Shown: piece by piece, positions 24,672-27,464 of the stretch
Layout of the letters: each line of letters opens with the position of its first letter
Position numbering within the stretch: the stretch's first letter is position 1
Virus record (IMG/VR): IMGVR_UViG_3300027749_000096
Location: 8,006-72,005 of that record
Strand: one strand, 5' to 3'
Origin: a virus
DNA length: 64,000 bases
Position numbers and translations under genes: made by a program
The notes under the pieces: generated by a model
What the model was told of the DNA's origin: nothing
The model's database searches: none
Seen by the model: the letters and a program-made list of their open reading frames with translations, nothing else

Positions 24672-24809
24672 ATGAAACAAATTAATCTCACAATCAGAGA
24701 ATGGTTCACCTTTAAAGAAATTGCTACCTTCATGTATGAGTTTACAGTTAATAAAGACTCTGTCATAATTAAGTGTGAAGCTCATTACTTAGAACCACTA
24801 GGTTACTAA
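24672..24809 (+). CDS. 45-aa hypothetical protein
   Basis: Hand-translated MKQINLTIREWFTFKEIATF...LEPLGY. Confidence 0.5.
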   Translation: MKQINLTIREWFTFKEIATFMYEFTVNKDSVIIKCEAHYLEPLGY

Positions 24810-25501
24810 ACAAATTAAGACCTGTATAATATACATATATAAACTCATATAGACATATTTATTTTATACAGGTCTTTGTTACTATTTTAGCCTAAAAAAG
24901 TTGTCTCCAGCCTGTGGACATACCTGACTTTACTATTGATAATCAATTAGTTGTGTGTGAGGGTGATGATGGGTGGAAACACCTCAATCTATTCTATTAA
25001 CACACAGAATGTGCTGAAAAAAACAAAAAATTTGTGGATGAGATGGCTATAACTCTTTAGAGATGAATAAACTCTTACAAACTTGTGGGGCTTCTATGTT
25101 ATTTATACATTAGTATTATCAGTACTACGTATATATTCAAACACTCTGATAAGGTGTTAATAACAAGATGGTGCAGACTTAAAAATCAAGTAGTGCTTAT
25201 ATATAGGGATAACAGATACCTATTTATATAGCTCTTTAAGGCAGTGATGTCACAATTCTGTAATGTTGTACAAACCACCTCAACATTTAGTCTATAGGTT
25301 TGTGGTAAACCTAACTAACAATATCTATTTATCTATAAGGATAAATTAGATGCTTCTGATGTTTAGATGTTAGACCGTCACTTCTTATATGGTTATAAGG
25401 AGATACATTAGCAGTTTATTATTATTTATGACACATTTAACGGGGCTGAGACCACAGCCCAAAGTCTTAACTCAAATCCTTTGTCTGTAGGATATATACA
25501 G

Positions 25502-25726
25502 ATGACAACAATTATGAAAAGTTTTAGAATTGAATGGGATACATTAAGAAATGGTCAATTCCCAACAGAACAAATGGAATCTTGTGGATTATCTGTATCT
25601 GTAACTAAGTTATCTGTATTTAAACAAGAGATAGAGTTAACTTCTACTACAGATGAAGATATTACACCATATTTAGCATTTGAAATAGGATGTTTAGTCA
25701 CTGCTAGTGTTTATTCTAATAGATAA
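25502..25726 (+). CDS. hypothetical protein
   Basis: ORF 25481-25726, ATG at 25502 more likely. Confidence 0.45.
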   Translation: MTTIMKSFRIEWDTLRNGQFPTEQMESCGLSVSVTKLSVFKQEIELTSTTDEDITPYLAFEIGCLVTASVYSNR

Positions 25727-25727
25727 A

Positions 25728-26111
25728 CTCCGTCTGATCAACGGGGGCTTAATTATAGTGGTTAAGCAGGAAAAGAGTTATGGGTAACAACCATAAATGT
25801 TGATTATGACTCAAACAAAAGGTGAAGACCATTCCTAGAGGGTAAAACTAATCCTATAAATCAACTGTAGGTATTCCCTGGAAGACTGGCTATTAAGGAA
25901 GCATAGTTAACACTCATATTGTCTGATGTATCAGAAGTGTTCTACCTTTTTACCAGTCTTTACGGAATAAAAGCAGTTGTAACAAATACTAGTTAGTAAG
26001 CATATAAACTGTGAAGGTTTATGTTGAAATAAGGCTGGAAGAGTGTTACCACAAAACTTGTAATTCAGAGGTCAAGAACCTGCTTACATGTTACAACTGA
26101 GTGCAGAGGGG
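25728..26111 (+). ncRNA. candidate large structured RNA, element A
   Basis: 11-bp CAGTTGTAACA/TGTTACAACTG stem; TATTCC..AAGACTGG/CCAGTCTT..GGAATA; several hairpins; no ORF. Confidence 0.55.
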
Positions 26112-26209
26112 AATAAAGTATTGTTGCTTTTTCTTTAACCAAGCAAACATCCAGTAAGTTACTGGCGTTGGGTCACCATAACAGACAAGTGACATTTTTT
26201 AAAAAACTT

Positions 26210-26386
26210 AATAACTTTGCAAGTTGTTGAGCACACCAGTTTCTTTGAGACCTTCTAAACAACTTTCTAAAATTATTTATATTACCTAGGAATCTGATAT
26301 AAATAAGGGTACAATCCATTAAGTAATGATATAGGTATATTGCCGAACTGTTTAGAAATAAAACTCAAAGTTTTAGGTGTAAAACA
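26210..26386 (+). ncRNA. candidate structured RNA, element C
   Basis: Nested ACACC/GGTGT, TTTGAG/CTCAAA, TTCTAAACA/TGTTTAGAA. Confidence 0.45.
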
Positions 26387-26431
26387 CAAACTCAAAAAGG
26401 ATATGTCTTCCTTATAATAGACAGGAATGTT

Positions 26432-26614
26432 ATGATTAGTTCAAAAATTGATTTAGATGAAATTGAACATTTAAAAATGGAACAATACATCAAAAGAATT
26501 GCAGAAATAAGAAGTGAAATAGAATTAACATATTCTAATCCCTCATTATCTGGTACAGCTAAAGATTTAGCTACAATTGCTGATCAAGAAGAAGAAATGA
26601 AGTATCAACAATAA
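26432..26614 (+). CDS. hypothetical protein
   Basis: 60-aa ORF. Confidence 0.45.
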   Translation: MISSKIDLDEIEHLKMEQYIKRIAEIRSEIELTYSNPSLSGTAKDLATIADQEEEMKYQQ

Positions 26615-26670
26615 CTATTTGAGTTTAGGGGGAGATGTGAAAACATTGAACCCTAAGCTTTAAACTAATT

Positions 26671-26853
26671 CCTTTTGCATATTCTTCTTGATTAATAAAG
26701 TCCTGTATTTAAATGGGATGCTGGAATACCAGATAATTAAAAGAAGACAGTTGTAATAGATGGCTTATAGCAAAGTAACCTAACCATTTCCTTTAGGAAA
26801 ATAAAAGTAGAGTAGGTCTAGACTTCCAATATTACAACTGTTTATGCAAAGGG
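26671..26853 (+). ncRNA. candidate structured RNA, element B (related to A)
   Basis: CCTTTTGCATA/TATGCAAAGGG closing stem and ACAGTTGTAATA/TATTACAACTGT stem. Confidence 0.55.
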
Positions 26854-26887
26854 TATAATATTTAATCAATTTTTAAAACAAAAAACA

Positions 26888-27223
26888 ATGAAAATAATTT
26901 ATGATAAGGATCTTTCTGGTAATCTAGCAGTATATATCCACTGTAAAACTGCTGGGGATTATTATGACATCAATAACAAAATGTATGTACACTCTGAATA
27001 TGATACAGAATGGGATCAATTAATGGCTAGATTAGTAGAATTAAAATACTTTAACCATTATGACAAACAAGAATTAAAAAGTGCTGGTAATGTTATTATA
27101 CTTCTTGAATTTATAAGCTGTTCTCAAAAAGATATGCTTATAAAAGAACTTAATGTTTATTTAGAAGGAATAAAAGACGGACATTGTATATATGAAGTTA
27201 AATTTAGAAATCTTGACAATTAA
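26888..27223 (+). CDS. hypothetical early protein
   Basis: ORF with A-rich leader. Confidence 0.6.
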   Translation: MKIIYDKDLSGNLAVYIHCKTAGDYYDINNKMYVHSEYDTEWDQLMARLVELKYFNHYDKQELKSAGNVIILLEFISCSQKDMLIKELNVYLEGIKDGHCIYEVKFRNLDN

Positions 27224-27236
27224 AAACAAAACAACA

Positions 27237-27464
27237 ATGAAATATTCAAACACAAGAATGTTTATAGAATACATTCTAATTGCATTTAGTACATATCTTA
27301 TTCTATCTTTGGTTATATCTATTATAGGGGGATTTAATTATAGAGAAGTATTATGCTCCACTAATCAAATCTGTGCTCTTATGTTTATTTATTGGTGGAT
27401 TCCACTACCTAGAATGATAGATATGGAAAATGAAAACAACAATTTTATAACAAAAACAAAATAA
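27237..27464 (+). CDS. small membrane protein (2 TM)
   Basis: Two hydrophobic segments; ATG 27237 has A-rich leader. Confidence 0.55.
   Translation: MKYSNTRMFIEYILIAFSTYLILSLVISIIGGFNYREVLCSTNQICALMFIYWWIPLPRMIDMENENNNFITKTK

Follow-up and report, generated by a model that had tools for sequence, protein, structure and literature searches.

What are the two look-alike structured RNAs that open a gene block in the phage record IMGVR_UViG_3300027749_000096, and what might they be for? The window (the whole stretch of DNA analysed here) is 64 kb of this 72-kb IMG/VR virus record, which is 56% complete. A sequence-only reading had described element A (25728-26111) and element B (26671-26853) as one scaffold in two copies, with two covarying end helices around unrelated interiors, and had proposed either mimics of CRISPR repeats or a new processed or self-excising RNA family. 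We find that A and B very probably derive from an abundant twister-type family of phage RNAs with a long P5 arm, by loss of the catalytic core. That they now serve as stabilisers or processing elements is a prediction we hold with much less confidence.

The relatedness of the two elements holds up. In A, the arm CAGTTGTAACA (25974-25984) faces its exact complement at 26089-26099, and the tail GTGCAGAGGG occupies 26101-26110. In B, the arm CAGTTGTAATA (26748-26758) faces its complement at 26830-26840, and the tail ATGCAAAGGG occupies 26844-26853. Both elements have the hairpin base CAGUUGUAAYA/URUUACAACUG followed by RUGCARAGGG, which is the P5-plus-tail feature of the family described below. 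With at most one mismatch the 11-mer occurs 18 times in the window against 4.89 expected, a count reached by none of 100 shuffles. The C-G versus U-A difference between the two inner helices is also real, and the same pair covaries in the family (columns 65/210: UA 71, GC 7, UG 7, CG 5, AU 4).

Further homologues exist. Exact matches to CAGTTGTAAYA-N60-90-TRTTACAACTG occur in 92 IMG/VR stretches, far from chance, and removal of duplicates leaves 79 unique instances. Most of them read ...UUAAUGCACCA-(2-5 nt)-CUCAC-UUCCCAAGG-GUGAG-[P5]-A-GUGCA-GAGGG.... A pattern for the 5' half, TAATGCACCA-N7-13-TTCCCAAGG, is present in at least 120 IMG/VR stretches, and a regular expression retrieved at least 144 unique compact copies from IMG/VR. 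The P5 arm is not uniform: of 116 copies found through the 5'-half pattern, 44 have CAGTTGTAATA, most others are 1-2 letters off, and some are fully compensated or very short.

The canonical architecture is that of twister type P1: a UAA loop, P2, P4 with a CCCAAGG loop, GAGGG and the T1 pseudoknot, here with a long P5 arm added. The motif order UAA / CCCAAG / GAGGG is that of the Rfam twister-P1 consensus (uUAAcgCcGCC ... GUCCCAAGCC ... gGcgGAGGGa). We assessed this structure (P1, P2, P4, P5 and the T1 pseudoknot) in an alignment, A1, of 121 of the 144 compact copies, omitting 22 longer than 185 nt and one overlapping match on the opposite strand. The cells of A1 are 90.8% paired, compared with 80.0% in shuffles and 32-51% in slid controls. 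Changes occur on both sides in 25 of 29 pairs, and none of 500 shuffles reaches the observed value on any measure. P4 covaries at all five pairs, and P2 by C-G to U-A changes that occur in 4 and 7 sequences. The T1 pseudoknot is 99.4% paired and changes from C-G to A-U at columns 35/250 (4 sequences) and 36/249 (3 sequences); in P1, pairing reaches only 63.8%. A candidate T2 pseudoknot, between the C after P2 and the G of AAGG, is invariant in A1 and hence carries no covariation information. The TAA is likewise invariant across A1, most rows of which came from a pattern that required it.

Rfam does not see this family. Neither A nor B has any Rfam match, whether the whole window is searched at gathering score or 25300-27300 at E <= 10; the twister models RF03160, RF02684 and RF03154 are among those that report nothing in these searches. 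No Rfam twister or twister-sister model reports the canonical family copies, not even where P5 is as short as about 20 nt. Because no such model reports them despite their architecture, we call the family twister-like, by architecture, and uncatalogued. We found no description of a P5-conserved family in the literature on phage twisters, tRNAs or circular RNAs, which is no proof of absence.

Family members occupy the spaces between genes in freshwater phages, and the next gene usually begins 30-40 nt downstream. For 26 of 148 unique tails, the first downstream ATG with an open reading frame (ORF) of 40 codons or more is 30-39 nt away, against 6 of 148 when the anchor is moved 100 nt further on as a control. 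We considered and rejected GAGGGG as a Shine-Dalgarno sequence: a long-ORF ATG stands 5-14 nt downstream in only 3 of the 148 tails. B follows the typical spacing, with ORF 26888-27223 beginning 34 nt after its tail. Downstream of A there are further conserved non-coding modules, not a gene.

Family copies also keep company with one another and with other RNAs. At two loci they stand back to back: in L118 (~600-630) a new UAAUGCACC begins 2 nt past the preceding tail, and in L123 (~385-401) it begins 2 nt past a P5 3' arm without a tail. In L133, positions 1-391 match GOLLD-like RNA at 90.1 bits (gathering score 150; the match is cut at the locus start) and end about 10 nt before two consecutive twister-type copies. 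L019 has two twister kinds side by side: a P5-type copy and, about 100 nt before it, a separate type-P1 match (855-923) that scores 48.5 bits where the gathering score is 67.2. Ribozymes are described in passages of PMC10085705 as enriched near each other and near phage genes, for an unknown purpose.

A and B have lost what makes such an RNA cut. Both lack the UAA loop, which is cleaved between U and AA, and both lack the CCCAAGG loop of P4 and therefore the T1 pseudoknot. The motif TYCCCAAGG, with at most one mismatch, is absent from 24-28 kb, and no CCC-type loop is found in the P4-position domain of B or in the 5' domain of A. The A right after the scissile bond acts as general acid, and changing it inactivates twisters, according to passages in PMC11662667; A has G at this position. 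The idea of a new self-excising family was thus right about the family, a variant of the self-cleaving twister that Rfam misses and whose helices and T1 covary, and wrong about A and B, which are without the catalytic core.

Other copies have lost the core too. The 79 unique P5-pattern matches divide into 36 compact twister-like forms, 18 extended forms with a CCC-type loop, 19 with the family tail and no CCC loop (two of them loop variants) and 6 without the family tail. A continuous closing helix of at least 7 bp abuts P5 in 8 of the 19 core-less forms and in L058b, from the group without a tail. These closing helices vary in sequence yet stay paired (CCUCUGCACU/AGUGCAGAGG, CUCUUUGCACU/AGUGCAAAGGG, CCUUUGUACU/AGUGCAAAGG, AUAUUCUUU/AAAGAGUAU). 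Three more core-less forms (L049, L054, L060) have a short AA/GA or AA/AA internal loop, and so does L227. A covariance model of the family that we built, R1, scores the core-less forms elsewhere at 34-61 bits. A and B belong to this class, B as a closed junction and A as an orphan 3' half behind another module.

Element B consists of four parts:

26671..26681, plus strand: 5' strand of the closing helix, CCUUUUGCAUA; 11 bp with 26843-26853, identical in the metagenome orthologue L233
26682..26747, plus strand: domain at the P4 position; in the minimum free energy (MFE) fold a hairpin with base UUCUUCUUGAUUAAU/AUAAUUAAAAGAAGA and two small inner hairpins
26748..26840, plus strand: P5 hairpin; arms 26748-26758 / 26830-26840, interior 71 nt
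26841..26853, plus strand: spacer UU and tail UAUGCAAAGGG; the tail is the 3' strand of the closing helix

The outer helix described for B is clean. CCTTTTGCATA (26671-26681) and TATGCAAAGGG (26843-26853) form 11 bp, present in the MFE fold and unchanged in L233, and the element as a whole folds better than shuffles (z -3.67). Its layout is CCUUU-UGCAU ... [hairpin] ... [P5] ... UU-U-AUGCA-AAGGG. The P2 pair set UGCAU/AUGCA is retained, GAGGG reads AAGGG and is consumed by the closing helix, and UUU, fully paired, stands in place of the family's UAA. The former loop and pseudoknot strand are zipped up by CCUUU. The closing helix takes up the whole tail and leaves a closed three-way junction, where it meets P5 and the hairpin at the P4 position. 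Of the full-length model R1, whose 5' half comprises UAAUGCACCA, P4 and the CCCAAGG loop, B gives only a local match, at P5 (19 bits, E 0.0031). Among the P5 interiors, that of B resembles only the one in L065, a compact member of the twister type (about 70%).

Relatives of B keep this skeleton and exchange its inner parts. In the metagenome contig L233, closing helix, P5 and tail are as in B, and so is the middle-hairpin stem, UGAUUAA...UUAAUCA, which has a different inner part; the same stem base recurs in extended family members. A relative in DNA run X5 retains the arms and tail of B, has many insertions and deletions in the P5 interior and skips 37 nt of the middle hairpin (26696-26732).

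Element A is built differently:

25727..25973, plus strand: module X (5' domain); a folded RNA conserved in its own right, with a first hairpin at 25728-25746 and a long hairpin at about 25876-25970
25974..26099, plus strand: P5 hairpin; arms 25974-25984 / 26089-26099, exact complements, interior 104 nt, aligned by R1
26100..26111, plus strand: tail AGUGCAGAGGGG, the same as the 3' strand of P2 followed by GAGGG in the twister-type family, and aligned to the R1 consensus AGUGCAGAGGG

A, too, folds better than shuffles (z -3.15), and R1 aligns it end to end (39.9 bits, E 1.3e-9). The 5' half of that alignment is weak. It uses UGA-UGUAU-CA (25922-25931) where the family has UAA-UGCAC-CA, and the sequence behind this segment is occupied by a module X helix backed by covariation. 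The tail GUGCA-GAGGGG is present, and its sole P2 partner is this UGUAU, with two G-U pairs.

The outer helix proposed for A is doubtful. CUCC-G-UCUG (25728-25736) and CAGAGGGG (26103-26110) make just 8 bp with a bulge, and the 5' strand also makes the local hairpin 25728-25746, which competes with it. The IMG/VR relative L229 bears on the choice. It is 85-92% identical and shares the whole A 5' domain (25727-25973), along with an upstream Hatchet ribozyme and the next 273 nt. Module X in L229 is 92% identical over 246 nt and has two compensatory changes: C25731-G25744 becomes U-A in the local hairpin, and G-C becomes A-U in GAAGACUGG/CCAGUCUUU. L229 departs at about 25988, some 15 nt beyond the end of module X, into unrelated, probably coding sequence, and no P5 helix or tail is recognisable behind its module X. 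A sub-hairpin of module X recurs in L104, L017 and L036; an exact 24-mer of the module has zero matches in IMG/VR.

A is therefore P5 plus tail, an orphan 3' half, fused behind a separately conserved 246-nt folded module, and it is not a closed copy of the B scaffold: module X stands in L229 without P5 or tail, the sequence behind UGA-UGUAU-CA is taken up by another helix, the L4 loop is missing and G replaces the catalytic A. The picture of one scaffold in two copies survives for the inner helix and tail; it fails for the outer helix of A, which is bulged and finds no backing in L229.

Two RNA sequencing runs cover part of this region as assembled contigs. Run X4, which is 100% identical, has two pieces in 24800-27300, at 25069-25413 and 25733-26335. 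Run X8, from a relative 95-99% identical, covers 25773-25970 and 26091-26241, the latter at a depth of 135.6; the unlike letters just before 26091 in its contig are those of another P5 interior. Contigs of both runs bridge 25924, the site of the sole twister-like UGA, a weak hint against cleavage in A. The ORFs 25481-25726 and 26432-26614 have no contig cover in X4 or X8, an absence that proves nothing. The patchy cover on non-coding blocks fits stable RNAs.

What, then, are A and B for? We lean towards regarding them as non-cleaving derivatives of the twister-type family that have been retained in the early transcript for structure or processing, and rate this as somewhat better than an even chance. 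Both would act as stable folded blocks within that transcript and might protect or define RNA ends. Canonical copies would cut between U and AA, after which they would form a compact block at the 5' end of the RNA that follows; B would supply the same block in the same place without cutting. Alternatively, B might present its stacked closing helix and P5 base, about 22 bp, to a double-strand RNase. The P5 and tail of A would be one module of a longer modular RNA, and the long P5 arm a folded, freely exchangeable add-on.

Several points count against this. L229 gives no support for the outer helix of A that a closed scaffold would want. The UGUAU of A can pair with GUGCA through two G-U pairs, and a vestigial or weak core in A retains some small probability. 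The name ribozyme for family members is itself read from sequence. Closing helices could have arisen by palindrome extension at the DNA level rather than by selection on RNA. Assembled contigs define no RNA ends and may include DNA contamination, and B is uncovered in X4 and X8, although absence from contigs proves nothing.

The alternative that survives best, which we nevertheless think unlikely, makes A and B functionless, decaying relics of twister-type ribozymes, produced by module recombination and by template switching that extends palindromes. A does resemble an orphan P5 and tail fused to another module, one that L229 has without them, and modules are shuffled among close relatives. 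Moreover, the 5' strand of core-less forms is often almost perfectly complementary to the tail, the product expected of template switching at a hairpin. Against this, the skeleton of B (closing helix, P4 stem, P5 arms and tail) persists in L233 and the X5 relative, in which only inner parts differ, and B retains the family spacing to the next gene. The tail of L058b is strongly diverged yet still pairs with its 5' strand, and A is abundant in two RNA libraries.

A second alternative turns the argument around: the conserved P5 base and tail would be a portable socket for variable folded RNA cargo that binds protein or nucleic acid or acts as a decoy or in anti-defence, and the ribozyme would be dispensable. 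A twister turned socket would keep its 11-bp P5 base and tail despite lost catalysis and show exchangeable arms of 60-170 nt (protein traps, decoys, anti-defence RNAs), within an array of processed, partly circular stable RNAs heading the early operon. We find this rather doubtful. P5 base and tail are indeed the only parts common to compact, extended and core-less forms. The earlier description of a conserved scaffold with variable cargo is right at the level of the family, where P5 base and tail are conserved and the interiors hypervariable: BLAST groups no more than 4 of the 183 unique P5 interiors into any one cluster, and that of A has no relative among them. These arms nonetheless fold better than shuffles (mean z -1.89; 97% of 163 below 0), and interiors are swapped between near-identical relatives. 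The interiors of L046 and L053 hold tRNA T-arm-like motifs (GCAGTTCGATTCTGC, ATAGGTTCAAGTCCTAT). On the other side, no motif is enriched among the 183 interiors, and the intact members L105, L109 and L133 have P5 arms of just ~20 nt, so cargo is not obligatory. The optional P3 and P5 stems of known twisters also vary, with no known function.

Two specific kinds of cargo were tried and set aside. As antisense sequences, the interiors and 5' domains of A and B match the window no longer than shuffles do. As T-loop or tRNA-like cargo, regular expressions gave five matches in the 183 interiors, of which only L046 and L053 are convincing. Real or apparent tRNAs do occur beside family members: tRNA-Gln begins 3 nt after the tail in L040, a tRNA-like 3' end (...GGTTCGAGTCC...CACCA) abuts the core-less element in L227 (~200-260), and 10 of 60 family loci have a tRNA within ~1.5 kb, which is no strict link.

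It is improbable that A, B or both still cleave themselves, through a non-canonical or remodelled twister core or through another, unrecognised ribozyme fold nearby. R1 does align A end to end, with UGA-UGUAU-CA replacing UAA-UGCAC-CA, the surroundings are rich in ribozymes (the Hatchet lies 540 nt upstream), and natural twisters tolerate many structural imperfections in a high-throughput assay, according to parts of PMC11662667. The same passages report that changing the general-acid A inactivates twisters, and this position is G in A and U in B. Neither has a CCC loop for T1, contigs from two libraries run across 25924, and no Rfam ribozyme model matches A or B at E <= 10.

We give almost no credence to A and B as CRISPR-repeat mimics, decoys for Cas13b or Cas9, in whose favour stands solely that the P5 arms read GTTG...CAAC: these letters are the P5 base, part of a ribozyme-type fold backed by covariation, the arms tolerate compensated changes (CAGATGTACAC/GTGTACATCTG and CACTTGTAACA/TGTTACAAGTG in other members) and are two strands of one helix with no repeat-spacer array, the same arms occur in more than 200 elements otherwise twister-like, and no Rfam CRISPR-DR model matches A or B at E <= 10. 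The only such match is a weak one (CRISPR-DR33, 26195-26234, E = 1) outside both elements, on the 5' box of a neighbouring bipartite element. Reading repeat-like GTTG...CAAC hairpins of phage DNA as CRISPR mimics should be avoided.

Genes for head and packaging proteins (portal, terminase, major head protein) run on the minus strand up to about 22 kb, and replication genes run on the plus strand from about 24 kb on. A and B are located at the head of this rightward gene block, amid small ORFs. The window has a G+C content of ~30% and no tRNA, and near-identical DNA is present in metagenome runs with a freshwater or lake label. The 72-kb record (itself 56% complete) was found to have no RtcB or RNA-ligase Pfam family. 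A promoter scan was uninformative, with 24 sites against 20.5 expected.

A BLAST search of 24800-27300 against phage GenBank gave a sole match, 49 nt to a crAss-like record, and no relatives were found of the 111-amino-acid neighbour protein used for synteny. Genome contigs gave 13 pattern matches, of which R1 confirms only small contigs of metagenome-assembled genomes: Chitinophagaceae (56 bits), another bacterium (48 bits) and Paludibacter (~23 bits). These are too weak for naming a phage host.

Upstream of A lies a recognised ribozyme:

25053..25191, plus strand: Hatchet ribozyme; scores 76.6 bits with Rfam RF02678 (gathering score 51)

It heads a stretch (25053-25468) that closes as a 411-nt circular RNA contig in run X8. 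The joint, 25464 to 25054 with four ambiguous letters (UCUU), is at the Hatchet 5' end, and depth is 188.7 compared with ~10 on either side. In DNA runs X3 and X5 and in the relative L229, the sequence continues without a break across both ends of the circle. No second Hatchet, hammerhead or pistol that could make the 3' cut (25464-25468) was found by eye or with Rfam at E <= 10. Low-GC freshwater 'hatchet cccRNAs' of 357-567 nt have been reported as viroid-like, according to part of a preprint (10.1101/2022.07.19.500677). The 411-nt circle fits these RNAs, and suggests that they are transcripts of DNA phages; it could also be an assembly collapse of a tandem Hatchet in the relative.

Other conserved modules surround A. 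Between the Hatchet block and module X, the small ORF at 25481-25726 is swapped for an unrelated ORF in L229 (1544-1887), and the flanking non-coding modules are kept at 85-92% identity. Directly after the tail of A comes a 58-nt module (26112-26169), 77-90% identical in L038, L045, L062, L102, L142, L179 and L200, where it lies ~50 nt upstream of compact twister-type copies. Further on is the bipartite element (26196-26248 and 26365-26398), found in 12 loci and not in Rfam, with a 5' box AAAAAACTTAATAACTTYCCAAGTTGTTGAGGACACCAGTTTCTTTGAT, a 3' box TATCAAAGTTTTAGGTGTAAAACACA and 60-190 variable nt between. Its boxes pair (CUUUGAUA/UAUCAAAG), and the window copy has a compensatory GAG/CUC change. 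At many loci it directly follows a twister-type tail, with a gene beginning 15-45 nt beyond the 3' box.

These findings point to a huge phage branch of the twister class that is invisible to Rfam. About a quarter of the copies found by the P5 arm (19 of 79) have lost the catalytic loop and kept a paired scaffold, a natural series from ribozyme to plain structural RNA. Such a series offers a handle on what purpose ribozymes between the genes of phage operons serve: should core-less copies that occupy the same place ahead of a gene still matter, the selected feature would be the fold, not the cut.

How do these RNAs compare with known systems? With twister type P1 (RF03160), as set out in passages of PMC6154101, the family shares, in order, P1, the UAA/GAGGG internal loop, P2 and P4 with its CCCAAG loop, as well as the T1 CCC:GGG pairing with compensatory changes and a stem at the optional P5 position. 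It differs in having CA, not GCC, after P2, UUCCCAAGG rather than GUCCCAAGCC, and a P5 whose base is sequence-conserved and whose arm spans 20-200 nt. A and B keep the P2 3' strand, (G/A)AGGG and P5; they also lack UAA, the CCC loop and T1, and so fail the defining features. In twister-sister (RF02681), again from passages of PMC6154101, the P4 loop is twister-like and pseudoknots are absent; B is likewise without T1. Unlike B, where the corresponding region is a continuous helix, twister-sister has a conserved internal loop with a C-A cleavage site. Its Rfam model matches neither the A/B region nor family copies at E <= 10.

Structured 5'-untranslated-region (5'-UTR) stabilisers and RNase III processing hairpins are known in phage polycistronic transcripts, for example the early RNase III sites of T7. 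A and B have no sequence relation to these, derivation from a ribozyme scaffold would be unusual among them, and processing is here a prediction. Like them, our elements are intergenic, stand shortly before a gene and offer about two turns of stacked helix, made up of the closing helix and the P5 base.

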